A stretch of 63,887 nt of DNA, filler included, from Hausera hauseri (GCA_046269625.1; 12 parts of 12 records of this genome joined end to end with filler, not necessarily neighbours in it); one strand, 5' to 3'. Counted from the whole stretch's first letter, positions 9,015 through 46,259 are shown. The notes: generated by a model not told the origin, from the letters alone. A program made the numbers and translations.

Positions 9015-9083
9015 TTCACCACCGCCCCCTGGATCCTTGCAGCGCCCACCAGGGGGCGGTAGCGCCCACTTTGGGAATCCCTG
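9015..9083 (-). mobile_element. hAT (Charlie-like) transposon terminus
   Basis: Minus strand begins CAGGGATTCCCAAAGTGGGCGCTACCGCCCCCTGG, with an internal inverted repeat ACCGCCCCCTGG..CCAGGGGGCGGT. Confidence 0.6.
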
Positions 9084-9233
9084 ATTTAGAATTACAAATA
9101 AATAAAACATGAAAACAATGAAAAAATTTTGTTATCAACAACAATCATGTGATGCATTGTAACTTGAATAAAAAGAAACCACTAGAACCAATTCGTTATT
9201 ATATTCAAATTTTATCAAATTAACCTTTCATTA

Positions 9234-11386: not shown

Positions 11387-12162
11387 AGGTAGAGGACTGT
11401 TCAATCTTCTTCTTTTAATTAGGTGTTGATTAAATACTTCCGTATTTTTCTTTACACAGTATTGAACAATTTAATCGTTGCTGCTCGGGGAAGAGTGGGT
11501 ATGATTCTGATCTTACATAGGTGTGAGTAGGTAATGTGTTGCAAGAGAAGTAAAAACTGTTTAATTATTTCTTTACTTACTTACTGGTTAGTATCCTACT
11601 TTTTACTTGGGATTTACTGAGGACTCCGTCAGGTCGCTTTTACCTGGTCGGAAACTTTCCAATGTTATTTAACTTTATTTACTTAAACTTGTTAGACAGA
11701 TAATAGACAAAAATGTAAACGAAATTATAACTCTAGTTTACGTACGAAATTACGATAATATTAGCAAACAAAAACACAATAAAATAAATGATCTTACGTG
11801 AAGTCATCATCAATGGTAAAAACTACTGTGTTCATGCACAAAGATCATACTTTATATAGTGTTCTGATTGTAATTACATTAAATAAATAAAGTAACATCC
11901 TGCGGAAAATTCCATTAAATCAGGTTCAGAAAATCATGTCACATATAAAAATTCACATGGTCATTATCAACTAATACAAATTATACATAGCAATCATGTA
12001 ATAATCAGTAATGGCACATAATGTACATAATGAAGTCCATAAATAATCATGCGTCTCTCAGATGATACATTAATTTTATCAAAGGTCAAGAACTGACCAC
12101 TACATGTCACTAAATGTTGCACAATATTCGACGGGGGTTCTGAGAAAATTGTCCCAAATTGA

Positions 12163-13596
12163 TCATTGGTCCAATATGATGGGCCTGTGGACATATTTGC
12201 CTGTGGATCTGGATTTGTACCGTATGGAATCTGGCTCGTATACTTCATCATCTAATACCAGTGTTTCATCCACCTGAATTTTACGTTTTCTTCCACTTTG
12301 TGATGCTGTAGGTGCTTTTCGCAGCGTATCAGAGGCCGCACTTTGGGTGATATATTCGTCGGACCATTTTATTTGTTTATATATTGATTGATAGCACTGC
12401 GCTAAGGCAGTGCTTCGGAGAGAGAAGCCCTTTGTATCATAAAATTTGCGGGCCAACTCTTTGTAGGTATTGGACGATAACTGATACCGACGGATAACAT
12501 CCTCGTGATATAAAATATCACGTACTCCCGCTATCCGTCGGATTGGACATTTGAAATGGTTCACAACCATTTCCACCACGTCGGCTCCAATAATTACTTT
12601 ATCCGTTATAACTTCTGTCACTTTCCTGTAAAAATCCACGGGATCAAGTTGATTGTTAATACTGGATTCTGTGAGGCCAGTTATATGCGTATCAAAATTA
12701 TTGATACGCTGTCTTGGTGTAATGATTCCATATAGTAGGGTGTCTCCGTTTATTGTTAGAATTGAAGCTTCAATAGGTTGAAGCTGATTCCACTGGTCAT
12801 AGGCCAAATTTACGGCTGCTATGACCATGTCTTTGTCTGAGACTTTTTCCAATCTTCTATAGGGGACTGTTCTGTATTTAACATAGTCAGGTTCTGGGAG
12901 GTTGAAGCATATTCCCTCTGGTAGGCCGGGATAAAATTTTTCTCGCTTGATTACTTCCATTGCCAGAATTACACGGTTTGTGCATGAACGGATTTTAAAA
13001 GTGTTATTCTGGAGAAAAGTATAATCGAACGCTAACGCATGTTCCGGGTCCACGTTAATTAAATCACCTTTAATAGCTGTCTTCTTATCTGTGGTCTTTA
13101 TCTGAATCTGACCTACCACGCCATACAAATTCATAGAATGAAATCGATCAGGCAGGATTATAATGTCATCGAGAAGAAATGACATAGCTTTAGTTAGTTG
13201 CATTATAGCAAATGATCGGTTGGCCATACTATACCCCTTGAGGTTGTTGGGGATTTGTTGGGTTTGAGGATAATTTAAACTGGTCACATTATTGTTGTGA
13301 GATACGAAATATTGATTTGAAGGGTTAGCGTTAATCATGTGACTTTTGACATTGCTATACCAATGTTTCGAACGGTTGATGGTCTGGATCTGATGGAACG
13401 TTGTAGCTGAGACTGCAAAAACAAGAGTCAATACATAATTTATCATGATACTTAGACACAATACAACGGTTATCAAACACACCAAATGGGTAATCGTTGT
13501 GGTTTGACTGTTACTATTTCTATTTAGTAAGATAAGTCGATGTTCGGCTATCTTTCTACTTAGGGTTGCGTATATTGCAATCCCTGTTACTAATTG
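12163..13596 (-). CDS. Retroelement extra ORF, in-frame after a single UGA: hydrophobic segment plus ISG20/REX4-like DEDDh-fold domain with degenerate catalytic residues
   Basis: The frame is open from 13596 to 12163. ASILTINGDTLLYGIITPRQRINNFDTHITGLT..KVIIGAD aligns by eye with the REX/ISG20 pattern SxVNxxGxxLYDxxxxPxxxIxDYRTxxSGxT..KxxVGHD. Confidence 0.7.
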   Translation of the reverse strand, partial: QLVTGIAIYATLSRKIAEHRLILLNRNSNSQTTTITHLVCLITVVLCLSIMINYVLTLVFAVSATTFHQIQTINRSKHWYSNVKSHMINANPSNQYFVSHNNNVTSLNYPQTQQIPNNLKGYSMANRSFAIMQLTKAMSFLLDDIIILPDRFHSMNLYGVVGQIQIKTTDKKTAIKGDLINVDPEHALAFDYTFLQNNTFKIRSCTNRVILAMEVIKREKFYPGLPEGICFNLPEPDYVKYRTVPYRRLEKVSDKDMVIAAVNLAYDQWNQLQPIEASILTINGDTLLYGIITPRQRINNFDTHITGLTESSINNQLDPVDFYRKVTEVITDKVIIGADVVEMVVNHFKCPIRRIAGVRDILYHEDVIRRYQLSSNTYKELARKFYDTKGFSLRSTALAQCYQSIYKQIKWSDEYITQSAASDTLRKAPTASQSGRKRKIQVDETLVLDDEVYEPDSIRYKSRSTGKYVHRPIILDQ

Positions 13597-13599
13597 TCA
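13591..13599 (-). promoter_or_regulatory. Candidate programmed stop-codon readthrough signal UGA-CAA-UUA
   Basis: It is the only stop in about 1135 in-frame codons, and its 3' context matches the CARYYA consensus. Confidence 0.7.
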
Positions 13600-15570
13600 G
13601 CTGGGGTTATCCGTATCTAACGGATTCGTTAGATTTCGCATATCTATTCTCACCCAGCTCCTTTTTCGCTTGTGTCGCCTGTATACAATTTTACTCACTA
13701 ATATCAATATTATTATGAAGACTACAGGGGTTATTAAACTTATGCATATTATTTCTAATTGGGAATGACTATATACTGCTCGTGTGGGTTTGGGTGTTAT
13801 CTTGTGGCTAATTGTGTTAGTTTTATGCGATACGTCTGTCTCATACATTACTCTCGTGATTGCTGTCATTATTTTAGTAGAAATTACCTTATTTTTATCA
13901 TCTAGCAATTGTAAAATTATTGTATATCGAGTATTAGGGTCTAATGCTGCGCATGGTACTACTAAATCATCTGGAGTTATGGTTCCCTTGGCTACCACTG
14001 TATCTTGTTTCTTACAACTAAACTTAATTTTTGCAAAATCTAAATCCGGTCTGACCGAAATGATTAATGCAGTTGGAGCTGCTACTACTGTGACATTTCC
14101 CCAGATTGATCGCTTTGTACAATAATAAGATGTGTAAGGTTTCACTAAAATGGTCATATCCGTTTTATTATTCAAGGACTGGGCAGGTGGTACCATAATC
14201 TTGTTCGGTATTTCATCATACTCCTTCTGGTTCTTGTATCGTATGAACATCGTCGGTCCTTTTCTCTGTATTTTATTTTTCAATTTTCCATGTTCTTTCC
14301 GTGACAGAGAATATTTTACCTCGTATATTTTTCCTCTTATTACGTTACAACAAACTTGTTGTTGTTCATCCGTTAATTCACATTTCACTAGTCTTTGTTT
14401 ACTTCCCAGTTCTTTTATGGATATTGTTATCCATCTAATGTATTCTAATTCTATCGTACTACTAATTTCTAGGCAACTTCGTCCACTTTTAAATCCCATC
14501 GGTCTTATTATTAGTTGAGCGAGTATTATTGCATCTAATAGGGTTTCATTCATTTCATGTCTATTAGGAACTCGTATATACCTGTGAAATTTGGTATATA
14601 GACTATAATAATAGTCTCCTTTCTTCTTTATGAGCGTAAGATGTACTTCATGTGTTCCTGAAGTGTCTATTAGACATAACGTTTCATTTGTCGACGAGCG
14701 TAGCATACAGTCATTATACCGCTCATTCGAGTTCTTTTCATAACCATAGATTGGGGTTGTTTGTATCCTTATAATATACTCGCCAGGCATTCGTCTGGTA
14801 GTATACCAGCGAATGCATTTTTGGCCTTTCATGGAGTACGTTATTTGGTATTTTAGGCTTTTTAACCATAGGTCTTCATTTATCGCCGTGGCATGTCGTA
14901 TCTTTGCTTGTTCAATTTCCTGTTCCGTCATCTGTCCTGCTATTTGGGGAATCATAAAGATAGTCGTTAATAATAGGCTCTTTATTAGCCAATGCAATCC
15001 GGGGATTGAACTTTCTTCTTTTACTTTTTCGGTAATACTTAATACAAGTTCCTTTTCGCCTTTTCTTAACTCGCTTCTTCGGGCTGCTGGCTTACATCTG
15101 TTAACATGGACCTTCACCGATGTATTGTTTTTCCTTAAAGATATGTTTGGCATATTTACCTTTTCTACTTCATATGGACCCTTATATGGTCTATCTAACT
15201 TAGATGTCTTACCTTTCTTAAGTGCCGGAGAATATAACATCACTTGATCGCCTATTTTGATTTTTGGTTGCTTAGTCTTTTTATCGTAATATTTCTTATA
15301 TTTGGATTTATAATCCTCTTGGTTCCCGCAAATCGTTTTGTAGGCCAATTGTAAACGTTCTTGCATTAATTGTTTGTAGTCTTCCATTTCCATCAAATGT
15401 GAGACAGGTCTCACATTAAAGTCTAAATCAATGGGTAATCTTGCATCCCGCAAATACATTAGATAAAAGGGGGTTTCTTTAGTGGCTTCATGCACTGACG
15501 TTCGATTTACGAATACACACGCATTGACATACTCATCCCAATCGTCTTGCCTAGTATTGACCACCGTTTG
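13597..15570 (-). CDS. Gypsy integrase C-terminus fused to a type I membrane protein (signal peptide, Cys/FN3-like ectodomain, TM); 5' truncated by contig end
   Basis: Integrase end DWDEYV..VHEATKETPFYLMYLRDARLPID and GDQV..SKLDRPYKGPYEV..VHVNRCKP. Then hydrophobic WLIKSLLLTTIFMIPQIAG, FN3-like ALDPNTRYTIILQ, TM LEIICISLITPVVFIIILILVSKIVY and basic RRHKRKR. Confidence 0.88.
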   Translation of the reverse strand, partial: QTVVNTRQDDWDEYVNACVFVNRTSVHEATKETPFYLMYLRDARLPIDLDFNVRPVSHLMEMEDYKQLMQERLQLAYKTICGNQEDYKSKYKKYYDKKTKQPKIKIGDQVMLYSPALKKGKTSKLDRPYKGPYEVEKVNMPNISLRKNNTSVKVHVNRCKPAARRSELRKGEKELVLSITEKVKEESSIPGLHWLIKSLLLTTIFMIPQIAGQMTEQEIEQAKIRHATAINEDLWLKSLKYQITYSMKGQKCIRWYTTRRMPGEYIIRIQTTPIYGYEKNSNERYNDCMLRSSTNETLCLIDTSGTHEVHLTLIKKKGDYYYSLYTKFHRYIRVPNRHEMNETLLDAIILAQLIIRPMGFKSGRSCLEISSTIELEYIRWITISIKELGSKQRLVKCELTDEQQQVCCNVIRGKIYEVKYSLSRKEHGKLKNKIQRKGPTMFIRYKNQKEYDEIPNKIMVPPAQSLNNKTDMTILVKPYTSYYCTKRSIWGNVTVVAAPTALIISVRPDLDFAKIKFSCKKQDTVVAKGTITPDDLVVPCAALDPNTRYTIILQLLDDKNKVISTKIMTAITRVMYETDVSHKTNTISHKITPKPTRAVYSHSQLEIICISLITPVVFIIILILVSKIVYRRHKRKRSWVRIDMRNLTNPLDTDNPS

Positions 15571-20719: not shown

Positions 20720-20881
20720 NNNNNNNNNNNNNNNNNNNNNNNNNNNNNNNNNNNNNNNNNNNNTTAATTAATTAANNNNNNNNNNNNNNNNNNNNNNNNN
20801 NNNNNNNNNNNNNNNNNNNTAATAATAGTCAGTTGTTTTGCTTGTGTTATAAACAAAAAATGATTTTGTAGCAGATAAATA

Positions 20882-21100
20882 ATGGCGATATGATTTATAG
20901 ATATTCAAGCTTTCCAAAATGATAATGCCCGGTACACAATAAAGGAATTATACATTATGGAGGTCGGTAACATTTTCAAACCACTTGTATACATATTCAA
21001 GCCCGATATTGTGTAGAAAGGCCTGACGGAAAAAGCGAAAATTACAAATGGATTTCTCTTTAGACATTGCCACGGACTTCATTAGTATGAAGGCAATTAA
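20882..21100 (+). pseudogene. Small DEDD-exonuclease-like accessory gene of the kind found beside Maverick-type pPolB
   Basis: MAI*FIDIQAF..YTIKELYI..YIFKP..*..FLFRHCHGLH*YEG, with stops at likely Trp positions. The family call is recalled, not searched. Confidence 0.5.
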
Positions 21101-21131
21101 TAAATACGAGTAGGCAATAATTTTAATAATC

Positions 21132-21560
21132 ATGGAAATAGTTATTCAATTGAAGCAATGGCAAATTTTTAATAGATTATCAATTTCAGACTTGGTACAA
21201 TGGTGGAAAGTACTTGATACTAATCTGGTTGCGAGAGCAGCAGGTGATTTTGGATTTAAAGAAGATTTAGCGTCAATAGCATTGACAACAACAGATTACA
21301 GCTCTATAGAAAATATAATTATCGTGTTAAATCAAATGTACATTCACCGATTGTATGATACAAATTACTTTATTACTGTTGAAAAAGTACGCGGTGAATT
21401 AACGAACTTAAAAGAGAAAATAATGGAAAAAGTACGAGACTGTCAGTTTGTGTGTACTATGGAAACAAAGAATAGCGGATACGGTATTCTTAATGTGCGG
21501 CCATCTTGTTGTTTGTCAAATGTGTTTTACCAAAGTAACAACCCAATATCCAGAATATAG
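21132..21560 (+). CDS. Hypothetical protein, 142 aa
   Basis: ATG-initiated ORF with globular composition inside the pPolB-associated gene block. Confidence 0.45.
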   Translation: MEIVIQLKQWQIFNRLSISDLVQWWKVLDTNLVARAAGDFGFKEDLASIALTTTDYSSIENIIIVLNQMYIHRLYDTNYFITVEKVRGELTNLKEKIMEKVRDCQFVCTMETKNSGYGILNVRPSCCLSNVFYQSNNPISRI

Positions 21561-21765
21561 ATATGCTATAATGGAAATTGTACACATTTATTACGAACGA
21601 CACCTTCTCCAATAACTAAACGTGGGCTTCAATGACGTGGAGGTAATTTGTATCATTGTAATATGAAACAATACTCATAAAGTAAATGTCTATTGTTTAC
21701 AATGAAAACAAACCTTTTATATCAATAGAGATGCTATGTTAGTTCACGTTTGTCTTTTTTAAACA

Positions 21766-22209
21766 ATGTATTTGGAAAACAGTTCAGCAGGTGGTAACAG
21801 CAGTCTCTCAATAAAGCCACGGTACAGCGAATATTCGCTCAGAAATTCCCGGTTGTATTATGAATACATTTTACATTATCTGCGCAACGCTATTCAATTG
21901 CCCTTGACGCAAATGGTCAAAATCAAACCGGTGAAATATGGTCTATTGGTGAAAAAGATCAGCGACGATGATTTGGATACAATGGAATATATAATTAGAA
22001 AAGTTAACAAAGATTTGGCGTTGAGTAACGATATCCAAGATACATTGTCGATTTTTCTCAAAGGAAATATGGAGAAAATTGTCAGTTCATATGGTGGAGA
22101 ACCAGCAGTTGCAGCAAAAGCAGTTTTGCCACCGGAAGATGCTAAAGGCTGCTTGACATTGAAGCTCAAAGGATTCAAGGAAAGGAGCGGCGTCAAATCC
22201 CAAATATAG
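21766..22209 (+). CDS. Hypothetical protein (possible start at MVKIKPV, about 21913), convergent with pPolB
   Basis: Open frame with globular composition, followed by AATAAA near 22280. Confidence 0.45.
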   Translation: MYLENSSAGGNSSLSIKPRYSEYSLRNSRLYYEYILHYLRNAIQLPLTQMVKIKPVKYGLLVKKISDDDLDTMEYIIRKVNKDLALSNDIQDTLSIFLKGNMEKIVSSYGGEPAVAAKAVLPPEDAKGCLTLKLKGFKERSGVKSQI

Positions 22210-22521
22210 AAAATGGGGAATTTTAATGATTTAACTGACTTTGTGTGCTTTTGTGATTTTATTTTTTCTCCGATCAGTAAATAAATGTATTCGTGTTACA
22301 TATTTTGTTTTCTCGTGCAAGGTTATTGTTTTACTTTTACTTCTATCTTACTTAATAATAATAAGCTAAGTAAGTAACCGAAAACAAAACACTGAACAAA
22401 ATACGTTGTTGAAATATAAAAACGATACACATAGGATAATTGTCAATGATTGTCACAGTAACTGAACTGAACTGAACTGACTTGTGTGAACCGACAGAGC
22501 ACCGATTGTTTCGACGTGCGT

Positions 22522-25500
22522 TTATTTTAGCCGCCGATGTCCATACGCCCAACTCTTATTTCCCCCAACCCACTTTCACTTATCATCGTTACATGACAAA
22601 ACGACTTTTGCACTAGTTATTGTGTACAGCTGGTGCTCAATTTATCGGATGATCGTTTGAGACACAACAGCCACTGAGTGTCCTCCTCCTTCTGCTGCTG
22701 CTGCTTCTTCATATATACAGCGATAATCACCGTGGTTGATTTCCGTCTGTCTAAGTCCAACTCCTTTTCCCCGAATTTTCGGTCCACAATTCGTCAGAAG
22801 ACTGTAGCACTTTGGGCGTAGGAATATCCATTCCCGATGGAGAACCCTGCCTTCACTTTCATCCTTGAAGCAGCCGATTTTTTGTTTTTCTGTTGTACAA
22901 CGGATGATCCGGTGGATAGTTTGACGTGTTTAATAATCCATCTGACTGCATTTCCTGCAGTAGCTGTTCGCGATTGACTTTTTTCAGCCGCAGGAAAAAA
23001 CTGTCTGTGTCACCGGCAATTATACTAATGTAACAGCCGTTAAACATTTTCCAGTAATGTACCAAATCGCGATACTGTTGCTCATACATACGCAACTTTC
23101 TCAGGTCTAATACCACTTGTCCGATATAACTTGGCTGGTCCAGAACGACTGCTTCTCTGTTTAACAGCACCGCAACCAATCCATCGGCAATGTGTATTGA
23201 CCGCCTGAACTGTGCTTTGCTCGTGCACGTGACCAACCGCTTTTCGCTGTTGCATAGGTGTACACTGAGACGCTTTTTCAGATTCTTCACGGATTTCCAT
23301 AGAGGAAATTGTTTTTCAGCTTGCAGTAGTCCTTTTCGAACTTTGTACAGGCTGCGGCTCGTTTTCTCGAATTTCCATCTATGTACGCCTTGAATATGGG
23401 AGCCTGAGCAAATCGGACTGCATGATGCAGCTGTGTGACGCGAACACTGAGCTGCATGTAGAACTGTAGCAAACGCCAATGGACCACGTACTTCAGCTTC
23501 AGTTCATGCGTCATGGGCAGTTTTTTCACTTTGAGCCTGGCGGACATTGGTTAAATGGTGCGATCGGTAAATCGTCCAAAACGTCATGCAGCTCGTCTGG
23601 TACCACGAGTTCGACCTCCATCACGTATCCGACTGAGCCTGCCATGTCTTTTTGTGGTAGCTTGACCATCATGTCGTACAGATCTTGTCTGTCGACTACA
23701 CATTCGAATGAACCGTACGGCAAGAGTTGCGAAAGCTCCAGCCGTACATGTTATTAATACGGACCTGATGTTTGTTGACAAATACCATGCCACCGCGAAT
23801 ACCAATATCAAACAGCCGGTATATTTACGGGTCTTGCATCAGGTCAGTGTCTCGATCCAGTGATATTAGAGCTGACGCCCAACTCATTCCCAGTATGGAA
23901 TAAAAAATAAGTGGCTCCAGCCTATCTTCAGCCAAAGCTTTCGCTCAAAACGCTTTAAACACATCGGCTAATAAGTACACGTCCAGTTTAAGATACTGGA
24001 GCATGTAATCCAACATCTTTCTACAGCCGAGTTCTGCCAACATTTCTGTGCTTTTCGGTATTCATCTTTGCGATACCTGTCCATAGCGGTGTAATTCCTC
24101 TGCTGTCCGGAGTCGCTAATACGATGTTGCAAAATAATATGGAAATATGCCTCTGCTGCGTGAAATATGTGCGGGAAACTGAGTCAATGTTAGCGGCACA
24201 TCCGACAAGGCATTCACCACCTTTGCCAATGATTCATTAAGAAAGTGCAATGAATCAAGGAAGCGTACCTGGAACCGGTTTATACGAGCAGACAGTGACA
24301 GGTATTTCTCCATCGTAGTCTCCATCGTTTATTGTCCATTTCAAAATACGGTGACAATCATAACCCCTGAAGTTATAAAATACCACCGGTATGAATGGCC
24401 GCACACGCCTTGCCAAATTGTATGAATTACATGCTGCTCTTAGATATCGACCAGTAAAATGATCGTGATCCAGTACGAGTCGTTCCAGTGCGTCGAACGG
24501 TAATATTTTATTGCACAGGTATCATTCATCTGTGACTGAAAACATCCGGCGTTCATCTTCATCTGTTCACATCAAGGACTTGTTGCTATTTCTACTGTAC
24601 CATGGCGCGATTTCAGTTTCCACTGTGGTTTGCTACTTCTGCAAGAAATTGCGTACCCAATTCCATCCGTGGAAAACATAATATTGAGGTTGACCTGCGG
24701 CTTTTATTAAGACAACTAATATACCGACAGCGATCGGAACATGTTTTTGGTCATATATGTTGTGCCATGGTATGATATTTTCAATATCGGCATATACTAC
24801 ATATACCGGACTGTCGGTTTTTGACAAATCAGTGAACCTGAGTTCCTGTTTGACGGGCATAACATACATTAGTATTCCTGAAGAATTTCGTCTGCACAGA
24901 ATCACGTGTTTAGTCCATGTTGTTTCCAATTTGAATCCATGAAGACGTACAGGAAACCATTTACACTGTATCCATTTTTGGAGGAAATGGTCATGTTCTA
25001 TGTTTAGTAATCTGTCCAGATTTGTCACTACAACGTAATGGTACTTTTTTTTTGTTCCAGTAGCAACAAATTTACTGAGCGGCCATTTGGGTTCCGACTA
25101 CGATAGATGATATCAATATGAGGATTTTTGTAAATTTCTTCATCGGCTGGTATTTCCACGATTGCGTTGTACCGGAACACGTTGATTGTCAGTGTCGGAT
25201 TACGCAGTTCAAAAGCCAGAATGGATTTCAGTTTCACCGGCATCCAGATTTCATCGAAATCAAATTCGGAAAAATATTTCTTATACTGTTTTGGACGAGA
25301 TGCACTATGTCTGTCCACTTGGTCATATTTCAATACCGCCAGAATACTGTAAAGAAAATCGTATTTATCATTAGTATTTTTTACATTTACTACCACCAGA
25401 GACTGCTTCAGATCTGCAGATCTCGGTATGAATTATGTCACTTGACTTTATTATGATAAAGCCGAGGGTGACAATTCGTATAATTCGCCATCCACTATCC

Positions 25501-26253
25501 TTTGCTATGTAGTTAGTGATTTTCTCCTCGAGCTTTTCACCAATCTCAGAGATAAAATCCTCAGTATATGGTACAGCTCGATGTGACAGGTTCCTGTCGC
25601 CTTGCAGGTTTTCGAATCGTGCAAGTGCGTAATACTGCACTTTGCAGTGGTGGTGTTGGAATTTGTCCACTTCAGATTCCAACCGGTTTCACACAATGGA
25701 TTGAGCATGTCTCAATTGCGTTGTTGTTGTCGCCGACATGTTCACTTTTATATCCACGTACGATTTTTTCAGATGATACTTGATAGTAATGCGTAGTTCC
25801 TTCCCCTGTTGCTCTTGTTCCTGCTGCTGATGCTCCTTATGCTGTTTTTGATTTCTGTTGTTTTGCAAGTATCCGTCAAGGCTTGTTGATGCCTGATGTT
25901 TCCTACTTGTTGAGTGAATACTGCTGCTGATGCTTTTTGGTGCGGCCATTAATATTTGTTTTTTCGACCGCTTAAACTGGTTTAAGTGGTCATGGTTCTG
26001 ATTATAAAATTGTTCATAGTGGATATTATCTTACTATTGAACAACCGGGACAAATATATGCTCGTTTACCGTGCACTGTAGTGGTTCCATAGTACTGCTT
26101 TATTGTACTATGGCAGTCATCAACGTCGTGCACTGTCCTTGTACAGTACCGCGGGTACATGGGGCAATGCACTAGAATCATCTTCTTCGACCGTGTAAGC
26201 GGTCCGAGATGATGCTTGTGCATCTCATAAAAATAGGGGTACGGACATTGGGC
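22522..26253 (-). pseudogene. Protein-primed family-B DNA polymerase (Polinton/Maverick/adintovirus type), heavily frameshifted
   Basis: VVYADIE (ExoI), DHDHFTGRYLRAA (endonuclease VII-like), RFLDSLHFL, RGIFPY, KLKNNFLYG (motif B), AGDTDSFF (motif C), TSNYPPDHPLY, DDK..AYGH. N-terminal Cys/His repeat. Confidence 0.9.
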
Positions 26254-26353: not shown

Positions 26354-29300
26354 GCTACCATATGTAGAGTTGTTTCTTCACGTGGCTTCTGTGTTGTTAT
26401 ATCTGTGGCAAGTATATTTTCTATGTCTTCGCCTTTTTGTAATCCTGGATAAATACTTTCTGCTAAAGTGCATAAGGTAATTGTCTGATTTTGCTTTCCT
26501 GATGCATTAATTTGTATTATGTACTCTGTCTGACGTTTTAATGCGTTATATTCTACTTGTCGTGTAATTTGTATAAGTTTTACTTTTTATCTGTCATATA
26601 AGGTTCGACAGTTTATTTTTATATAGTAGTTTAATTCTTTGTCAACAATGAACACTATTCTCTACTGATGGACCGAAAATCTTATAGGTATATCTTTAAT
26701 TTCTGTTTTAGGTATATTGTTTGTTGTAGTAATTCGGGCGGTCGACATTTTAGTCGGGGTTTCCATAGAAATTTTCCAAATTCTATTTTCTGGATAGTAG
26801 GGTCGTAATTGTATACTTGATTGATTAGGCCGTATCGCGTATAAGTCAAATTTTACTTTGATTTCTTGGTTCACGGGTATTTTACAACACAGATGTTGCA
26901 CATCTGCATGAATGAAACAATATTTTATTTTCGGAGTTGGTCCTATTGCTGCCTTAAATACGATACAGATTTCCCGATTGACGGTTAGCTCCGTCCGAGT
27001 ATTTACTTGAATACATTGTCTTTCCTTATTCACGGAGATTCTATGGATATTTTAGTTTAGTAGTCTTATGGCTGGATTAGTAGATCGTAACATTTTGTTA
27101 ACTTTTATTCCATGCTGCCTATTCCCAGAGGGATGACTAGTTTGAATTGTGGTTTTGTTTCATTAATTTTAGATAAATTCGGTAGGTACAGAGGATAGGT
27201 CAGATTAAAAGTATGTCCGAAATCTATGTCGCAACATTGCGTACGTTCTCCGGGCTCAAAATCACAATTCTTTGCTTCTTTTGTTATTACATCGACTACG
27301 ACAATTTGGATCCTTCCAGAATTTTGGTGTGGTTTCCGTGTTTTAAATCCAACGCATGTGGAGTTAGGTGAATAATAATGGATCCTTATTGCTTGTAATA
27401 ATCTTGTATCTTCTTGTCTTTAATTTGCTTCGACTGTTGATTTCTTTCCGTTTTAATAACCTCCAATCTTGCTCCACTTTTCCAAATTCTGTAACTGTTG
27501 TACCACTCTTTAGCTTGTGTTCTCGGGATATAGGAGGCAATTAACGATAATGCTAAAACTATTTCAACGTACGATATTGGTCTATTGATTATGAAGGATA
27601 TTTTCCTTTCCCCTTTTCCTTGATTCGAGCTGGATCGCAAATTAGAGCGTTTTTCAGGTCTTATTTCTGTTTTAACAATTCTCTGTATGGATACTGTTTC
27701 TTCTTCACCATTTGTATTAATGTGTACAGTAGTTGGTGTGGTTTGAATAACTTCATAAGGTCCTCGTCCTGTACGAGTAAGTTTTAATGATGTACCTTTC
27801 TTTGCAACTAGATAGCGCACGTAGACCCAGTTCCCTTTTTCTAAATCGTGGGGTTTGGCCTTCTTATAGTATTGTTTCCTAAACTGTTTTTGATACTCAA
27901 GAGTGAGCGTTTTTGCTATATCCCAACATTTTGGTAATCGTATTTGCAAGTCTTTTGCGAAATTTGGTTCTAAATCTTCTGAATTTGCGTGATAAGGAGT
28001 CATCCCTAAGTCCGTAGGTAATATTGCTTCGTGTCCATACATCATAAAGAGTGACGTAAATCAGGTGGCCGGGTGTAAAGTAGTATTGATAGCAAATTGC
28101 GTTCCTTCTAAAAATTTGTCCCAGTACTTTTGATCCTTTGCTAGTACAGTCGATAAGATTCGTGTAACTGTTGCATTATACGTTTGACCATCCCACTACA
28201 CTGAGGGTGATATGCAGTAGTAGTTAGTCGTTTGATTTCGAAAATTTTAGAAATTTTGTCAAATAATTCTCTTGTAAAAATTCTTCCTCTATCGGTTAGT
28301 ATTTGATCGGATGGTCCGTATCTGCAGATGATTTTCCTTACTACTGCGTCGGCTAGAGTTTCCGCCTTTTGATCGATTAGTGCGATCAATTCCACAAAGT
28401 GTGTTAAACAATCTACGCACGTCAGAATATATTTGTTATTTTTATGTGTTGTATGTAAAGGTCCTACTATATTCATAGACATAGCTTGTATAGGCCTGTC
28501 TGGTACATCGATTGGTTTTAATTCTGCTATATAGTTTTCACTTTCTTTTGCTTTGTTGCACAGACTTCATAGGCGTCTACCCAGTTCTTTACGTCGATAT
28601 AAACGCTTGGCCAGTAATACTTATTTAATATTCTTTCTAATGTTTTCTTCCATGCCATATGTCCAGCTAAATGTGAATCGTGTTCGGCCATTAACACTTC
28701 CGTCCGTAATCCTTTTGGAATAACTACCAGTTTCCATCCCTTTCGTTCGTAATATAAAATATTATCCAGATTTGATGTATAATATTTGTGTACGTGTCTC
28801 TGTAAGTGTTTCTTTAGTTGACGTCCTCTTGGTATCTCATCTTGCTCGTCAAATTTGACTATTTGTTGGATAACTTTATCTTTAGCTTGTTCTGCAGAAA
28901 TTTCGATTGCTTTATTTAGTGTTAGGGTCTGCTGTTGCTCGACTAATTTTTCGAGCTGGGCTTTCTTCATGGTCGTAATTGTGCTTGTCTTTGTTTTAAG
29001 ACTTGATAAAGCGTCTGCGTCAATGTGTTTGTTTCCAGGTTTATATTGGAATTCAATGTTGTATCGGGAGATTTCCTCAATTCACCGATTTAATCTACAT
29101 GTTGGGTTATTTGCCCGTCCTTTAACGTTGTAACCGCCTTGGGATTGGTAACTATAATAATTTTCTGCCCATAAACGTAGACATTGAAATGCCTTAGGGC
29201 TTCTTTTACGGCTAGAGTCTCAAGTTCAGATACTGAATAATTTTTCCCAGCTTTTTTATGCGATCGTCCTCCATATGCAATTGGATGCTCCAATTCTTCG

Positions 29301-31967
29301 CCTTCTCGTTTCTGAGCGAATTCGTAACCAATTCCTTCTTTACTTGAATCTGTTTTAATTATAAATTGTAAATTAAAATCGGGTTATCTTAACACTGGTT
29401 CACTTGTTAAAAATTTCTTCATTTCGTCGAATGCTTTCTGTTCAACATCGGTCCATCTCCATTTGATACCTTTTTTAATAGCCGATATAGTGGCGCGTTT
29501 ATTCTCGAATTGTCTGGCACATATTTCGCATAATATCCACATAAGCCTAACCAATGTCTCAACTCTTTCTGGTTCTGGGGTTCCATACAATCCAATATTT
29601 TATTTATTAAAGATTTATCTGGTTTTAACCCTCCTTCAAAGACTATATGTCCTAGATAAGATGCAGCATTTTGTGCCCATTTAGATTTTTTTGGGTTCAA
29701 TTTCAATCCTGCCTGTTCCAACCGCATAAGTGTGTTTTGATATCATTTTGGTGTTCGTCTTCTCTTTTTGATGCTATCATTACATCGTTTAAATATGCGA
29801 ACGCGTGATCTAGTCCCATTAACATCTTATTCATCATTCTGGTGAAAATAGCTGGGCCGGTTACACCGAACGGCATGACGTTAGATTCGTAAACTCCGTC
29901 GTGTGTCTTGAACGCTGTTTTATAGTGGTCATCTTCTTCAATTTCCACTTGCCAGTATCCGGATTGTAAATCTAGTGTGGTAAACCATTNNNNNNNNNNG
30001 CTTCTTTCACTGATGGTAACGGAAATGAGCCTTTCATCATGAGCGTATTTAGGGCTCTGTAATCTATACAGAATTGGTGTTTAGTGTACCTTTTTTCTTA
30101 ACCATGAGTATTGGTGAGTACCAAGATCGATAGCTTGGTCGTATTCTGTCAGCTTTTAACATGCGTTCTACCTCTTTGGTTGTTTCAGGCCTTAATGAAT
30201 GCGGTGGTGGATACCATTTAGGCATCTTTTGCTCTTCCAAGTCAATTTCATCATTGGAGCCAGGTTTCTTTTTTAATGGAATCGTTAATCTTAAGGTTTT
30301 TGCTATGCCTATATCTTCTTCATTTTGTGCAATAATCGACTTATATCTAAATGGTAATTCGTAAAACTGACAATACGCTTCTGGTGAAAATTTTATTTCG
30401 ACGTGAGGTGGAAATTCAGCATATTTATATGGTTTTTCTTCGATTATTATTGTTGACACCTTATAAGTATGACCCAATGTAGTATTGGCGTACGACGTTA
30501 CGGGAGTTGATGCATTATTTACTAACCTGATTGGTACTCTTCCTGTCGTTAATCTTGTCAAAATATTACTAAGTATAATATTTGGATTAACGTCTTCTTG
30601 TGGCTCAAAATATACTGGTTGGTCGTCCTCTTCGCGGATTTGAGCATAAATTAGCATTTTGGTTCTAGGCGGTATATTTTCGTCGACGGGAATCCATACT
30701 TCTCCCTGTTTGCTTTCTTTCATTGTCTTGATACCTTTTACTGGTCCGAGTTCTATTAGTTTTCCGGTTTGTAAGTTTATTGCGATATTGTTAATTGCTT
30801 TAGTATATCGCAACCCAACACTACGTCATCGGTTAGTTGGTCCATTATGGCAAACTCGTGTCGGAGGTTTTGGCCCATTAATTGAACTAGGGGGCTCCAC
30901 TTAAATTTCGGTTTGGATTCTTGTCCGAAGACTCCGATGCTACCTGGATTTGATGACGATGCAGGCTGCAGTTGTTTCCGTAATATAGGCGGTATTGATT
31001 CTAATTTTATAAATGAGTCTCTGATCCTGTGTCGATTAAAGTATAGACTTCCCAATCTTCAATGGTAATCTTTGTGAAGGGTCCCTCTTCCATAACTGTT
31101 CCATAACAACTTGATATGTCTTTTGGTCTTTTAATTGAAGAATTTTGTGTCCGTTTATTGTTATTTCTGGTGATAAGATGATATTCTCGGTCAACTGTTT
31201 CAGTTCTTCGTTAGGGTATAAGTCGTTGATTGCTACACCAATTGCATTGTTTCTAATTAACGGTTCTTGTACTATAGAATTTTTGAACGATTTCACTCCT
31301 TGTGTTCCCCAGACTGTTGATCTGGTCTCTATATTGCGAGCTATTCTCGGTGAGTACAATACCCTATGGTCATCTTCCGCTCGTCTTTGACTAGTGATTT
31401 GCATTTTCTTTAATACTCCGTATTGTTTTGTTCCTTCATAAGGATCTTCACAGTTAAAAGGTTTCTGACAGAATGCCGATCTATATGACACCATAGATGT
31501 TTTGTCGCAATCCTCGTATATTGGAGTTGTTGGCGGTATGATGGGCAAAGGTGCCTTAATTACTGAATACATTTTGTGTCTATTTGGTCCGAGGATTACT
31601 TCTTCCTTAAGCTCATCATCATCTGAATTATTTCTTCGCGTCATATGTTTCTTAACCTTGCGTTTCAGCCGAAATATGGCTCTTGCTCGTCGTTTGTAAT
31701 TATAGTAGCCGACATGACGTTCAACGTCATATTTCCATCCATTTTCCTCATATGCTTTAAGCATTTTGCCGAATGGGATGATGATTGCGGTTAAGATTTT
31801 GCAGGAAAATCCTGTTAATGTAAATATTTCATACCCATTTTTAACTGCTTGGATTACCGCTTTTACTAGTTGTACTAAGAAATAGATTGATAAAATTTAG
31901 ATGCGGCTTGCCCAAAAATTAAAAATCTTCCCCATATCTTGTAGAGTATTTCGGTAGTTACCCAGAT
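26354..31967 (-). mobile_element. Decayed Ty3/Gypsy element with integrase-fused ectodomain
   Basis: Protease LIDTGS/VVLGCDIL, dUTPase-like insert, RT (LDLQSGYWQV, MPFG, YLND), RNase H (YSVSELETLAV), integrase (HDSHLAGHM, TDRG, TTAYHPQ), then signal-like IVLALSLIASYIPRTQA and Cys/FN3-like modules. Confidence 0.92.
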
Positions 31968-32067: not shown

Positions 32068-32735
32068 TGCAAAAATCAATAATATCGGATTTCCGATATT
32101 TCCAATATTGATGATTAGGACATGTGACCGGGTGGAATCGATTGAAAACATGGTGCAGTATATGAAAGTGCAGTTAGAATTTAAATTTATCGAGCCAATT
32201 TTGAATAATATCGATGCAAAGTTCAACTGAGGGAGAACCCACATAGGTTTTTTAAATCCTAAGGAAGCAAAATTCGATATTATAATTAGCGGGGGCAGAG
32301 AGGAAATCGGCGATGGCAATCTCGAATCTTGAGTCAGATATTTGGAATTCAAATATTTTTTTACTCGAATATCGAATATCGAACTATTCGAAAAATCTAA
32401 CAGCGGCAATCGATTTCTCATATTCGAATACCCCCTTGTGTATAAAAATTATTCCATGAAAGTGTACTATATATGCACAAAATCAATATTTCGAATTAAG
32501 CAAAATGGCATTTAAAGCTCAGTGAAGCGGAAATCAATAAATATAAATGCGAAAAGGGATAGGAAGTCATGTATGCAGAATCGGATTGTGGCATCAGGTA
32601 TTCGAAATCAAGCTTACAAGTCGAATACTTAGCTATTTGAACTCGAAAACTCGGTCAAATATGTATTATTCGAAGAATCTAATGACATCATTCGATTCTC
32701 CATTGTCGAAAACCTTAAATTTGTCACCTGCATGT
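32068..32735. repeat. TCGAAT-rich non-autonomous DNA-transposon-like repeat
   Basis: Many TCGAAT/ATTCGA motifs. Possible terminus AAATTTGTCACCTGCATG near 32718-32734. Confidence 0.4.
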
Positions 32736-32958
32736 ATTTAGTTTAATTTATGCATTAAAACAAAAGCGCATTAATACCTTAAATTTCGCACTGCCTTCTA
32801 TTTAATTTAATTGATGCATTAAAACAAAAGCGCATTAAAACCGATCAATAAAGGGGGCAGTACATGTAGATATGGCAATATTTTTCATTATTTCCAAAAT
32901 CACTTCAATGAATGGTGAGTTTTTTAATTGTTCTCCTCAAATAATTAGTTGACTTTAG

Positions 32959-35900
32959 ATGTGCAAACTTTACAGTGACTGTTTGGCTCAATTGCACGAG
33001 CCGGAAAATTGCCACAATGTTATGAAGAAATACTTTGGCTATATATGCAACAGGGTTCAGTATTATATATGCCATACATGCGAGGTAGTGTGCCAAACCA
33101 ATTATGAAGACTTTTACAATGTCCATAAACAGCACTTGATTTCTATCACCAAGTCGCAAAAACAAATATTCAGTACCAATATGCCAATAACGACGTTTGT
33201 TCCAAAGGAAAATCGAGGATGTAGTTTATATGTGTATTGCACATGTGTAATACACTACCCTCAGAATTGCCACAATGCCATGAGAAGCTATTATGAATAC
33301 AAATTCAATAAAGTTCTCTATTATATTTGTCAAGGATGTGAGGCTGTATGTGATGGAGAATACACGAAGTTTTACAATCATTATATTGCCCATTTAACAG
33401 ACTTCAATTTAAAGCAAAAGAAGGTTATATATAATGAACAGCATCCTGCTGTGACAGCGCAGCCTGCTTTGGCAGCGCATCCTGCTTTGGGTGCACAGCC
33501 TGCTGTGACAGCTCAGCCAGCTTTGGTAGCGCAGCCTGCTTTGGCTGCAAGGCCTTATACAAAACGCCCATCAGAAGTAGCAGCAGATGATCCATCAAAA
33601 GGTCAAAGAGAGCGGCTAGTTAATGCAGCTACACTGAAGAGCAAAGTGCGGCGATACTTCATTGCAGCAGTGTGGCAGACATCGCTCTATGAATTCCTGG
33701 AATATTCAAAGGAAGAGACAGCAGGAATTCTGCAGGACAACTTGTTGGAGCTGCAGGCCCTTAAAGTGAACTTCAAATTGAAAGCCACCTTCACCAATGT
33801 TAAAGTAGAGCTGTCTAATACAGTCTACGAGAAAAAAACAGGCCACTATTGAAATCCTTTAACATTATTGATTTCATTACTGAGGACTATACAAGGCTCA
33901 TCTGCGAAGCCGAAGAAAGCCAAGACAAGAGCGGTTGGACTTTAGCAACAATGAAGGGGTTACTTGTGCATATGCCCAAGTATTTTCCCATGAGAGGCAA
34001 GTCCTACATACTGCTTCCTGAATGGATAGTTAAGAAAAAGGCATGTGTCAATGTTCATAACAATGACAACATTTCATGTATGCCATTTTATCAAAACTAG
34101 TCCAAGATCAACATAATGCCTCCCGAGTTTGGATGTATGACAAAGTGCAACACACATATAACTTTAGCTGTATTTTATTCCCGCCAAGCCTAGATGAAGC
34201 CGTGAAATTTGAAAGCGTGAACAACATCTCATTCAACATCTTCGGATTGGAGGAGGACAAATGTTATCCATTACATGTGTGCAAGGAGGAATTGGAGGAT
34301 CATATGGATCTTCTCCTGCAAGATGATGGAGAAAAGATGCATTTCATCTGGATCAAGAATTTTGAGCGCCTCGTAGGATTTCAAATATTCAAGCATAAAT
34401 CAAGGATGGAAATATGGAAGAGATGCTTTACCCACTTTAGTACGGACACAGCCGCAGAAATACTGGAGGAGAACAAAAATTACTGCAATACAAACTATTT
34501 TATCCGAGCAGAATTCCTCATGGAGTATTACCTGGAATTCAAAAAGTTCGAGAAGATGCAGAAGGTGCCCATTGTTGTCTATTGTAATTTTGAGGCCATC
34601 CTCAGCCCAGTTCATAGCTGCAGCCCTAATCCTCAACATAGCAGCACAACGGCATACCAATATCATGAACTCTCATCATATTGCATGTATGCCAAAGGAC
34701 TGGCAATGAACCCTTCCTATTCAGAGAGCCAGATGCAGCAGCACATTTTATGAAGATATTAGAAGACATGGCTCATAAGCTTGAAAACATGCTTCAGCAG
34801 TATAAGTATACAATGAGCATGTTGAAGCAGCAACAATATGAACGGCGCAAGGCATCAACATGTTATTTGTGTGACAAGTCCTTTACAAGGATAATCATAA
34901 AGTTAAGGATCATTGCCAATTTGCAGGTGCATATCGGGCGCAGCATGCAACAACTGCAATCTTCGCTAAAAAACATGCACATATGTGCCTGTAGTGTTTC
35001 ATAATCTTAGTGGCTATGATTCCCACTTCATTGTTCGGGAACTGGGCTACATTGAAGGAAACATTAATGTCATTCCAAACAGTGAGAAAAAATACATCAC
35101 CTTCACCAAGCATGTGGGTCGCATTAGGTTTCGATTCATTGATAGCTTCCGCTTCAGGAGCTCGTCACTGGGTAGTTTAGTGAAGAACGTCCGTATAGAA
35201 GAACTCTAGGAGACGAAGCGGTTCTTCCCCACTACCTTTGACCTCGTCAAGAGGAAAGGCGTGTTCCCCTATGACTACATAACCTCTTGGTAAACACTGA
35301 ATGAGACATCATTGCCGGACAAGGAGGACTTTTATAGTCAGTTGTCATCCTGCCATAGTAGCGATACTGACTATGAACATGCCCAAATAGTATGGCAAAC
35401 CTTCCTATGCAGGACAATAGGGGAATACAGTGATAGCTATCTCCTCGCAGATGTGCTGCTACTTACAGATGTCTTTCAAAGTTTCCGGGGTTTGACCCTA
35501 AGAGCCACAAGTTAGATTCAGCCCATTTCTTTACAGCTCCAGTAATAAACTTGGCGACGATGCTGCGCTATACTAGCATAAGGCTCCAGATATTGAAGGA
35601 TTACAATATGGTCCTCATGATTGAGAGAGGCATCGGGGGTGGAATATGTCAGGCCATTCACAAGTACAGTGAGGCCAACAACAAATACATGGCCGATTAT
35701 GATCCATAAAAGGAATCCTTATACATATCATATCTGGATGCCAACAACTTGTATAGATGGGCAATGAGCAACCAACTGCTTATGATAACTTCAAATGGGT
35801 CGAAAAGCCTAAAGACGTCCCAATATTGGACCTAGATGCCACTGGGGATACGGGCTATATATTGGAGGTGGATGTGGAATACCTACATAGCATCCACACA

Positions 35901-36960
35901 AGGCATGAGCACCCGCCATTTCTGCCGGAGAGCAAACCTTCGCCCCACGGAAAGCATAAAATGCTGCTCTGTCACCTCGAAAACAGAGAGAGGTATGTAG
36001 TCCACTAAATAAAAATCTCCAACAGACTACCCAAAATGGACTCAGAGTCATCAGGATTTATGGGGCCCTGCAGTTAAGCCAGTCCAAATGGCTGACTCCA
36101 TACATAGACTCAATACCCAGTTGAGGGCCAATGCCAAGAACAAGTTTAAAAAGGACCAATTCAAACTTTACAACAACTCGGTCTTTGGCAAAACTATGGA
36201 GAATATCCGGAACCAGATTAACATTGAGGTGGTATGTGACTGAAAGTGGGCAAGGAAACTCATCGCTAAGCCCAACTTCTACAGCAGCACAATCTACACA
36301 GAGAACCTGGTGCGTTTCCATGTGCTTAAGACATCACTTGAGTTCAACAAGTTTATATGTGGATATGTCCATATTGGATTTATCCAAGACCTTGATGTAT
36401 GACTTTCACTACAACATCATGGTTACTGCATTCAAGGAGCTCCAGCTAATGTACATGGATACGAACAATTTCATATACCAGATCCGCACAAATGATGTCT
36501 TTGAAAAGTATGCAAAATTGGCGCAAAATATGGATACCTCAGACTATCCGAAAGATCATCTAAATTATTTAATTACCAACAAGAAGGTTTTCGGGAAGTT
36601 TAAAGACTAGGTAAATGAGAAGATCATCACCCGTTTCGTGGCGTTGAGATGGAAAATGTACGCCATCGATGTAAGTGGAAGGGTAAAGAAGCGGGACAAG
36701 GGAGTTCAAAAGGCCACATTAGCTAAAGACATTGGCACTGGAGATTTTGAGAGAGTGTGGCGGAGCAAAGTCATATAGTTAATGAGATGAAAAGGATCCA
36801 GTCCCGGGAATATCAGATTGCCACAGTTGCGCTGCGGAAGAAAAATGTCGATTGGTTTGATGACAAAAGGCACATTCTTGAAGACGGAATTCAGGCACTA
36901 TTTCACGTGGCATGTGACATTATTGTAACTATATATATATTGTTATTCTTTGTTCAATAA
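32959..36960 (+). pseudogene. Protein-primed family-B DNA polymerase, copy 1, with tandem N-terminal Cys/His repeats and an AQPALA linker
   Basis: KKACVNVHNND, VVYCNFEA, ACNNCNL, VVFHNLSGYDSHFI, RFIDSFRF, KGVFPYDY, YLDANNLY, NNSVFGKTMEN, YMDTNNF, DTSDYPKDH, GKFKD, FDDKR. Confidence 0.93.
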
Positions 36961-37146
36961 ATGTTGTACAGAAATATCGTGTTGTCTTTCTTGATCAAGT
37001 AATGTGGGATATAGGATAAGGCCAAGTAAAACTAAGTAACTACTATATAGATTAAGACGAAGTAAAACTTAGATAAATAAAATCAATAAATTTGAATATT
37101 CAATACAGTGCGACATTTACTTGCATTCATCTGTCATTATTTCAAA

Positions 37147-37417
37147 ATGTTGAAAACTTGTCCGATTTGTTGGGGGCAGATGCATAACAATGCGTTTGGC
37201 TACATGGGGCACACATACTTTCTGCATAGTCCGTCTGCAGAAATGGCTAAGCAGTAAAATGTCTTGTCCGTTATGCAGAACAAAGTGTGAGTATGTGGTA
37301 GTCCAGAATGCTGAAGACCAGTGCTTGTATGTAACATGGGTAGGTTGTGTGATAAAAATATTACATGAATTCTTACCAGACAGCGACAGTGACAGTGATG
37401 ATACTATTATTATGTGA
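37147..37417 (+). pseudogene. RING-finger gene between the two pPolB genes (frameshifted)
   Basis: MLKTCPICWG / HTFCIVRLQKWL..SCPLCR plus an acidic DSDSDSDD tail. Confidence 0.75.
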
Positions 37418-37710
37418 TTGTAGTGTTCAATACATGTTGTTTTCAATATAGTTTAAGTTTTATAAAACCAACTAATTTCATAACACATTTATTTAGTAAC
37501 AATATAACTTTGACATAACGATAAACAATTTTATATGCACAATGTGAGCCATGTTTACGATAAATACATGTAATGTTCTTTGGTATAGTTGCCTATTTGG
37601 TACATTCATATTCACATATTCTCAATTCTGGAAATATGCTATTAAATATCTTCTTCTTTCTTAAATCAGCATGATCTTTGACATGGAACATACAGAAATG
37701 ATTAACAGAA

Positions 37711-40700: not shown

Positions 40701-41272
40701 GTATGAGCTGAATTATATCGACTTGGAGACGTATAGACACCAGTTTCAATGTGAACTTAATATTGTTGTTGGTGACAAAGACAGCTTCTTCCCTGAATGC
40801 TGTGGTGTTGACTTAAAGTAGCAACTCTTACCGGCAATGATAGAAAACGAGCAGTTACATACGTCAAACTATGACAAGAGTGATCCGCTCTACTCGATTC
40901 GTTTCGCAGTTGTAATAGGCAAATTTAAAGACGAATATAGGCTGCATTCATTTTCAATAGGCGATTTTCATACGGCCCAAATCCTATGCCCTCAAAACCC
41001 AAACCAAACCATTACTCAAATGCAAGGGCGTAAATCTCAAACAGACAGACTTGCAGTTTGACAGCTACCTACAGGCTTATGAAGACGGTTGCAGCACCAT
41101 GGTGGATCAGGAGCGAATTGAAACTAAACACCACCAGCTTATGACAATCAGTTCAAAAAAGAAAGCATTGGATCCCTTCGACGACAAACGCCAGTGGATT
41201 GACAAAAACAAGTGTAGCATATGGACATTACTGTATAAGTATGTGAACATTTTCTTTGTACATATTTTTTGA
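37711..41272 (+). pseudogene. Protein-primed family-B DNA polymerase, copy 2
   Basis: CFLYSIL, FERQNPQLSINVF, VVYADFES, LLGDVFERFR, GIRGG, YIDVNNLYGWAL, NNSLYGK, GDKDSFF, GKFKDE, FDDKRQW. Confidence 0.93.
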
Positions 41273-41820
41273 TTTATTTGTATGTTATATCAATAAAAGT
41301 TTTTAATGTGTCTTATATTTTGTTACTTAGGCTTGTAATAAATATGTACACTTTTCATAATAGTGATTTATATCAACTTTGAGAACTTAAAACGAAGTTG
41401 AAGAAGTCATAATGAGGGCTAAAATGTTTTGTTCTTGGGATGGGAATGTGAAACCATAAGTATATCAGACAGCGTGCTTTGTTCTGAAGGTGGGAATAGA
41501 AAAACCACTGTCAGACACAGCGTGCTTTGTTCTGGAGATGGAAATAGTGATACCATGAGTAGATCAGACACATTTGCAAATTTTTGTGCTACAGCACAAC
41601 AAGGCAAAGTCCTGTGAAGTTGATTCATACATCATTGGACGCTGAATTAAATTTTGCGCAAGATAGACCTAACAAAAAATTTATATACGGAGGTCGAAAA
41701 TTTTTTCAATAACATTAACANNNNNNNNNNNNNNNNNNNNNNNNNNNNNNNNNNNNNNNNNNNNTTAATTAATTAANNNNNNNNNNNNNNNNNNNNNNNN
41801 NNNNNNNNNNNNNNNNNNNN

Positions 41821-45910: not shown

Positions 45911-46259
45911 TTCCCCGCATGCAATATTTCTTCATTAGTATTTTTATTTTGCACATATTTTGAAATATTGTTCATATTATAACTATTTCTCAGATTATCC
46001 AAAATTGGTTCTTCAAATGAGACTGAATCGGCCCTTGTACATTCACAGTGAATGTAAGAATATCCCTTATATTTCAAGTAATATTCCTCGATCTTGGTCT
46101 CATTGTTTTCTTTAGGATCGGGTAAATCAGATNNNNNNNNNNNNNNNNNNNNNNNNNNNNNNNNNNNNNNNNNNNNTTAATTAATTAANNNNNNNNNNNN
46201 NNNNNNNNNNNNNNNNNNNNNNNNNNNNNNNNTGTACAGACTCACATAAACATATATAT

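Follow-up and report, generated by a model that had tools for sequence, protein, structure and literature searches.

The window analysed here, a stretch of 63,887 nt including filler, consists of 12 contigs of Hausera hauseri (GCA_046269625.1), each 4-10 kb long and joined by the fixed linker N44-TTAATTAATTAA-N44. Since the contigs are separate, neighbours across a linker are not genomic neighbours. The contig at 26354-31967 is filled by a minus-strand Gypsy element, termed element 2, and element 1 lies on another contig, at 8932-15570. Translation, Pfam profiles and tblastn gave the domain order PR-RT-RH-IN-GPY for element 2, which fits Ty3/Gypsy (Metaviridae), and the element is a decayed retroelement copy of this type. 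Its best reverse transcriptase piece matched three elements from outside the window, P0004-P0006, at 54-55% over 84 amino acids (tblastn). The integrase was recognised by PF17921 (E=1e-16), PF00665 (E=1.5e-11) and PF18697 (E=0.003), the last for a GPY/F module at its C-terminus. No CCHC knuckle was found by translation within this contig, which is cut at both ends and on the 3' side of the element stops at 26354, ahead of any transmembrane (TM) segment. The features of both elements are listed in Table 1.

Table 1. Features of element 2 and element 1, in positions of the window
Feature	Position	Strand	Remark
Element 2: probable C-terminal end of a gB/chuvirus-type Env (pre-TM, TM, start of tail), in two frames	31774..31967	-	contig starts inside
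Element 2: aspartic protease and PR-RT linker, interrupted by frameshifts and stops	30091..31090	-	DTGS at 31033
Element 2: decayed reverse transcriptase and RNase H, containing a gap of 10 N	29102..30094	-	tblastn to P0004-P0006
Element 2: integrase (H2C2 finger, core, C-terminal half, GPY at 27763)	27600..28720	-	Pfam
Element 2: hydrophobic internal signal-peptide-like segment	27512..27583	-	integrase frame; 60 residues past GPY
Element 2: Cys-rich module 1 (4 Cys; 4 sequons in its frame)	27153..27383	-	leave-one-out profile
Element 2: Cys-rich module 2, colinear with module B of element 1	26806..27042	-	tblastn, shuffles
Element 2: Thr-rich linker between modules 2 and 3	26692..26763	-	7 Thr in 25 residues
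Element 2: FN3-like module 3, with two in-frame stops	26470..26691	-	profile from outside relatives only
Element 2: presumed stalk, start only	26354..26469	-	contig end comes before any TM
Element 1: open frame (integrase C-half, GPY, signal, modules A, B and C, stalk, TM, tail, TGA)	13597..15570	-	
Element 1: downstream ORF, 477 codons, in frame after TGA-CAA-TTA	12163..13596	-	hydrophobic segment, then exonuclease fold

The first-pass annotation had described an ectodomain fused to the integrase of element 2, read through stops and frameshifts. The peptides it had quoted were recovered on the minus strand (GPY at 27763, IVLALSLI at 27562, NSTCVGF at 27365, RQCIQVN at 27021 and NALKRQ at 26547). 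The region past the GPY motif is distributed over three frames. The integrase frame, which holds the signal-like segment (maximum hydropathy 1.98, averaged over 15 residues), stops at 27388; module 1 is read in a second frame and modules 2 and 3 in a third, which has stops at 27054, 26664 and 26589. Because of these stops and frameshifts, this copy is unable to make the predicted fibronectin type III (FN3) protein. An FN3-like module followed by a Thr-rich stalk had been proposed for the end of the region. The FN3-like module was retained as module 3, whereas the strongest Thr stretch precedes it, and the final 25 codons of the element contain 5 Thr. The many NxS/T sequons that had been noted amount to a moderate enrichment, 8 compared to about 3.3 expected from composition, one of them at an uncertain frame edge.

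The ectodomains of the two window elements were compared module by module. Module 2 had been described as colinear with module B of element 1, and tblastn aligned the two at E=0.005 with 26% over 77 amino acids, the best non-self ectodomain match in the window (next, E=2.0). Against the whole ectodomain of element 1, module 2 reached a local score of 73, with shuffled sequences at 38.7±5.6 and 1 of 2000 shuffles attaining 73; the other two frames of element 2 were not significant in this comparison (347 and 1979 of 2000 shuffles). When modules B and 2 were trimmed, none of 2000 shuffles reached the score. Six modules were then delimited by hand around their cysteines, which favours real sequences over shuffles, and 4 of the 15 pairs were significant (B-2 with 0, 1-2 with 1, B-1 with 4 and A-B with 5 of 2000). 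Modules in equal position, A-1 (721/2000) and C-3 (304/2000), did not align significantly, so that an ectodomain alignment better than shuffling was confirmed for module 2 but not in these position-by-position tests for modules 1 and 3. For the Cys-rich modules, leave-one-out profiles were matched by 0, 0, 0 and 1 of 1000 shuffles, module 1 scoring 12.2 bits with 0 of 1000. From the pair tests and these profiles, we take modules A, B, 1 and 2 to be one repeat type and both ectodomains to have the order Cys-rich, Cys-rich, FN3-like.

A profile built from the six modules of P0004-P0006 was run over 426 six-frame chunks of the window. Module C ranked first (E=4.7e-4) and module 3 of element 2 came second or third (E=0.014, falling to 0.0027 when bias was not corrected for; 1/1000 shuffles). 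A further match, near 57129-57370, was put down to chance, having 8 stops in 81 codons on a contig without Pol. It scores like module 3 and marks the noise level for it; since a stop-riddled noncoding stretch scores alike, the assignment of module 3 rests on its score together with its position. The homology of modules 1 and 3 to those of element 1 is thus probable through the profiles rather than the pairwise alignments. The earlier statement that both elements carry the same ectodomain holds in the sense of homologous modules in an identical order, but not of near-identity. The Cys-rich pair was seen in the two co-resident window elements and in none of P0004-P0006, and modules may therefore have been swapped within one host.

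The outside relatives came from a search of long proteins with the integrase C-half of element 1, which gave 4 matches among 371 candidates. P0004-P0007 were thus chosen by likeness to this integrase half, and P0004, P0005 and P0006 are single records on contigs of 20-30 kb. Each of these three has one ORF in the order integrase, GPY, signal, module(s), stalk, TM and tail. Their ectodomains contain one or two modules showing the pattern Cys..Cys..Leu....Tyr and a Thr/Pro-rich stalk, and their TM segments have a hydropathy of 2.5-2.9, compared to 3.27 in element 1, whose contig starts within the integrase. The fourth match, P0007, is a chromodomain element without a TM. The signal-like segment follows GPY after 58, 71, 72 and 251 residues in element 1 and P0004-P0006, respectively. 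The segments after GPY terminate in small residues, which would fit a cleavage by signal peptidase.

The integrase C-half of element 1 shares 44-47% identity with P0004-P0006 and 28% with element 2. Element 2 shares 26-29% with P0004-P0006 and 30% with P0007, so its identity to P0007 is no lower; the alignment scores, on the other hand, were 158-201 to P0004-P0006 and 78 to P0007. In the integrase core, element 2 was 39-47% identical to P0004-P0006 and 26-31% to three other elements, and a tree of this core (7 rows, element 1 left out) grouped it with P0004-P0006 at a support of 95/92. An integrase followed by a predicted FN3-type protein is found in the same position and order in five divergent elements, namely both window elements and P0004-P0006, and the open frames of the trait-bearing elements measure 657-3108 codons. 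We consider it highly probable that integrase-GPY-signal-modules-stalk-TM is the architecture of this lineage. Two more Gypsy-like elements are present in the window, at 1-4169 on the plus strand and at 41821-46132 on the minus strand. They are 64% alike in the integrase core and do not group with element 2 and P0004-P0006, and the module profile gave no match on either contig.

The fold of the ectodomain was predicted by AlphaFold from a four-row alignment led by the two modules of P0005 (pLDDT 79.6, pTM 0.55). The model shows two beta domains linked by a helix. Foldseek returned 211 PDB matches at E<=0.001, the best at 8.8e-7, with the tandem FN3 domains of fibronectin, DCC, LAR, neogenin and Tie2 at the top. 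VIA-align gave a Z of 10.1 for the whole model (rmsd 7.7, 170 aligned) and of 9.0 for a single domain (rmsd 3.1, 83 aligned). By this prediction, the P0005 model matches the seven-strand beta-sandwich of solved FN3 domains, and the predicted FN3 fold may be extended to module 3 of element 2 by the weak profile match. Pfam fn3 was not matched in either window element or in P0004-P0006. PDB sequence matches were weak (contactin-1, E=0.48; a fibronectin FN3, E=1.7), and the atlas likeness to fn3 clusters of 0.91 is taken as a lead only. Matches in a viral structure library were mostly FN3 proteins of phages and giant viruses; no named retroelement occurred among the 50 matches listed, many of which are unnamed. 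The Cys-rich modules A, B, 1 and 2 had no profile-profile match to the FN3-like modules (hhalign probability 0.2%). The single-sequence model of the element 1 ectodomain, at pLDDT 36, was unusable and without a Foldseek match. Searched alone, this ectodomain had no relative among 3724 candidates of 819-2335 amino acids and none among 1.84 billion representatives or PDB sequences. Viral contigs scanned for relatives of the locus, and metagenome contigs scanned with the exonuclease alignment and the integrase-end ORF of element 2, yielded no confirmed relative.

The first-pass annotation had regarded the fusion as an old, selected feature of a lineage and not a one-off chimera. This view is supported, because three of the four outside integrase matches share the one-ORF architecture and one of their ectodomains was modelled as tandem FN3.

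Contigs matching either element were counted in two runs. In run X1, 15,772 of 15.5 million contigs matched element 2 and 4,687 matched element 1 at a likeness of at least 80%; this run is possibly the window's own source or species, and its summed depth is not a copy number. The matching contigs, 80-99% alike, covered 30 of 30 bins of each element, ectodomains included, and one divergent contig matches element 1 to either side of its integrase/ectodomain junction. None of the run contigs listed spans a whole element. In run X2, 204 contigs fell on element 2 (27 bins) and 19 on element 1 (17 bins); the depth over the element 2 ectodomain was 0-1.2 and weighs neither way. The many divergent contigs indicate repeat families rather than single chimeras. 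Among the variants listed for the ORFs of element 1, codon positions 1, 2 and 3 were affected 11, 4 and 12 times (27 places among the 40 rows listed of 335), a hint of purifying selection from too few places to rely on.

A probable gB-type Env tail upstream of pol had been missed in the first-pass annotation. The contig of element 2 very likely begins in the tail of a gB/chuvirus-type Env, of which about 65 codons are left. Its first piece was aligned by tblastn to residues 953-972 of the P0006 Env (55% over 20 amino acids, E=0.015), and its second, TM-containing piece was matched by PF24664 at E=0.0022 with 16.5 bits, below the cut-off of 27, over profile positions 554-594 of 653. The two colinear pieces, scoring 68 and 62, were each matched by none of 1000 shuffles; the second piece alone was not significant by BLASTP. 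P0006 has a full gB/chuvirus-type Env in frame before the protease (PF24664, E=1.5e-83). An Env together with the FN3 protein was found in P0006 and, as a remnant below the cut-off, in element 2 only. The overlooked tail changes the likely purpose of the ectodomain: since the lineage would already have a gB-type Env before pol, the integrase-fused protein is probably a second glycoprotein and not the fusogen. After the integrase, no fusion-protein Pfam family was matched in element 1, element 2 or P0004-P0006. We rejected a canonical F or gB fusogen at this place, given the lack of a Pfam match and the tandem FN3 of the modelled relative.

The region before the protease differs between the outside relatives. 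The 3108-residue ORF of P0006 encodes, besides Env, three aspartic-protease-like stretches, one of them after the integrase, and two C2H2 fingers; gag was not found in it by Pfam. In P0004, an extra signal-module-TM unit (residues ~47-231) stands in the same ORF where P0006 has Env. The ORF of P0005 starts in the protease. By eye, the N-terminal stretch of P0006 looked ubiquitin-like, recalling Burro.

In element 1, the ORF downstream of the TGA contains an exonuclease fold like that of ISG20L2 (E=0.014) without the first acidic motif. It has 4 sequons, a relative, P0001, at 55%, and an ATG at codon 51 that opens a signal-like stretch. By topology, its product may be lumenal. The motif of a stop followed by CARYYA occurs 22 times in the whole window.

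Stalk-borne FN3 domains are characteristic of adhesion molecules and receptors. We tentatively propose that the FN3 protein might well be a cell-attachment protein, freed by signal peptidase, that acts beside a gB-type fusogen. In P0006 the order is signal, Env, TM, Pol, signal, module, stalk and TM. Since the hydrophobic segments alternate in this way between signal and TM, one polyprotein would cross the ER membrane back and forth, which would place Env and the FN3 ectodomain outside and PR-RT-RH-IN inside. From the alternating topology and the small residues at the ends of the post-GPY segments, we propose that signal peptidase would release an FN3 glycoprotein of type I, produced in a ratio of one to one with Pol, and that Pol would be held at the membrane until the element's own protease cuts. 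The FN3 glycoprotein, present on particles or producer cells, would bind a host surface ligand, and fusion would be done by the gB-type Env. Rhabdovirus G and baculovirus GP64, which are other class III fusogens, bind cells unaided, so an attachment partner is not required in principle. Herpes gB needs partner glycoproteins, and for gB-carrying Gypsy elements the mechanism of cell entry is stated as unexplained (Chary and Hayashi, PMC13524379, in excerpts). The proposed division of labour would be analogous to that of herpes gD and gB.

It is rather unlikely that the FN3 glycoprotein is instead a host-modulating accessory that is not needed for entry, acting as a host-receptor decoy or mimic or as a superinfection-exclusion factor on the surface of cells in which the element is expressed. 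The atlas look-alikes of the element 1 ectodomain include FNDC4/5 and cytokine-receptor chains (0.86-0.90, below the threshold of recognition), the modules vary in number (1 to 3) and type between elements, as in an arms race, and related giant elements bear host-manipulating domains, according to excerpts of PMC6431247. However, the fold matches are to generic FN3 with no preferred host family, and no host donor was found among the 1.84 billion representatives. The WSxWS box, the class I cytokine receptor motif of the membrane-proximal domain, was also not found in the translation of either window ectodomain. Even as a decoy, the protein would be an undescribed captured gene, kept where integrase C-halves share 26-47% identity.

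We regard it as improbable that the main job of the region is topological, with signal and TM tethering Pol at the assembly membrane and the FN3 modules serving as a folding spacer or trafficking handle. A glycosylated ectodomain of several modules would be superfluous for tethering, and Cys, Leu and Tyr columns are conserved invariantly between elements, although the signal-like segment does lie 58-72 residues past GPY in four of the five elements and Pol is placed between two membrane segments in both P0004 and P0006. The module-TM unit in place of Env in the P0004 ORF would fit a fusogen-independent transfer from cell to cell by adhesion and uptake, the FN3 protein replacing Env in part of the lineage. 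This appears very improbable in view of the full Env in P0006 and the probable Env tail in element 2, and P0004 and P0005 possibly have their Env in another ORF upstream of the DNA covered. A chance resemblance, or independent and unselected host captures behind unrelated integrases, is hardly credible and already largely refuted by the B-2 match (0-1 of 2000 shuffles), the position and order common to five elements, the long open frames and the multi-copy families, even though FN3 is a very common fold and 11 of the 15 module pairs, A-1 and C-3 among them, were not significant.

If the FN3 protein serves attachment, a wider reading is possible, albeit somewhat doubtful: an animal Gypsy lineage would carry a two-component entry apparatus in one polyprotein, consisting of a class III fusogen ahead of Pol, Pol between two membrane anchors and, following the integrase, a captured and module-shuffling FN3 attachment protein, to which some members would add a readthrough-controlled, catalytically dead exonuclease fold. 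Such an apparatus would provide gB-type invertebrate retroviruses with the receptor-binding partner that is missing, and the probable second surface glycoprotein, fused to the integrase and with host-like FN3 domains, is a concrete candidate for receptor binding in gB-carrying elements. The retroelement would produce both enzymes and membrane proteins from a single ORF by means of internal signal peptides. Internal signal peptides of this kind are flavivirus-like. An annotation that ends at the integrase would miss the FN3 protein.

Gypsy elements with Env before pol are already known. HSV/gB-type env genes in the order GAG-ENV-POL occur in Ty3/gypsy elements of Nematoda, Bryozoa and Platyhelminthes, and this survey of env-bearing elements recognises F-type and gB-type envelope proteins only (Chary and Hayashi, PMC13524379, in excerpts). 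The present lineage is like these elements in its multiple copies and in the gB/chuvirus-type Env ahead of the protease, full in P0006 and a probable remnant in element 2, but adds a second, FN3-type membrane protein fused after the integrase. The main text of PMC13524379 mentions neither fibronectin, FN3, readthrough nor exonuclease, and the elements deposited with it may carry the trait unremarked. Burro/GYPSM1 of planarians, of more than 30 kb, likewise has Env in frame before the protease and captured accessory domains (BIR, BCL2 and MATH) in one polyprotein of about 5,000 residues; in contrast to the lineage here, excerpts of PMC6431247 describe no FN3 or post-integrase membrane protein for it. 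The BIR, BCL2 and MATH Pfam families were not found in P0004-P0006.

Other elements have non-fusogen products after pol. The ORF3s of Juno and Vesta from bdelloid rotifers encode a TM or an exonuclease, comparable to the downstream ORF of element 1 (excerpts of PMC5408684). They are, however, separate ORFs with intact DEDDy or GDSL catalytic residues, whereas here the ectodomain is fused to the integrase and the exonuclease of element 1 resembles ISG20L2 and is devoid of the first acidic motif. Cer1 of C. elegans likewise has a long post-integrase region, CERV, that was once called env and later shown to be no fusogen (excerpts of PMC10309623). We rejected an identity with CERV, which is a nuclear RNA-export factor made from a spliced mRNA and is described in these excerpts without mention of transmembrane or fibronectin. 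Troyka was rejected as well, since it has neither a GPY/F motif nor env according to excerpts of PMC12440569, whereas GPY is present in element 2. With the FN3 adhesion proteins and receptors fibronectin, DCC/neogenin, LAR, Tie2 and Dscam, the lineage shares the predicted tandem FN3, the stalk and the single TM, but its modules are 9-17% identical to theirs, have no Pfam fn3 match and no identified host donor. In the top-ranked results of full-text literature searches, no paper was listed that describes a Gypsy integrase with an FN3 membrane protein fused to it; the integrase-fused FN3-type glycoprotein is apparently undescribed.

Beside element 1, DNA-transposon remnants lie at 9285-11262 and include a zf-Tnp_2 finger at 11080-11259 (E=3.5e-5); mariner-like frames were seen by eye at about 10200-10700, with no Pfam match. 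Judged by eye, the decayed frames at 20820-26253 and 32068-41720 have the look of a Polinton-type protein-primed DNA polymerase, with no relevant Pfam match. The contig at 50763-55227 consists nearly entirely of a degenerate TC/TG-rich microsatellite, and its long ORFs are artefacts.
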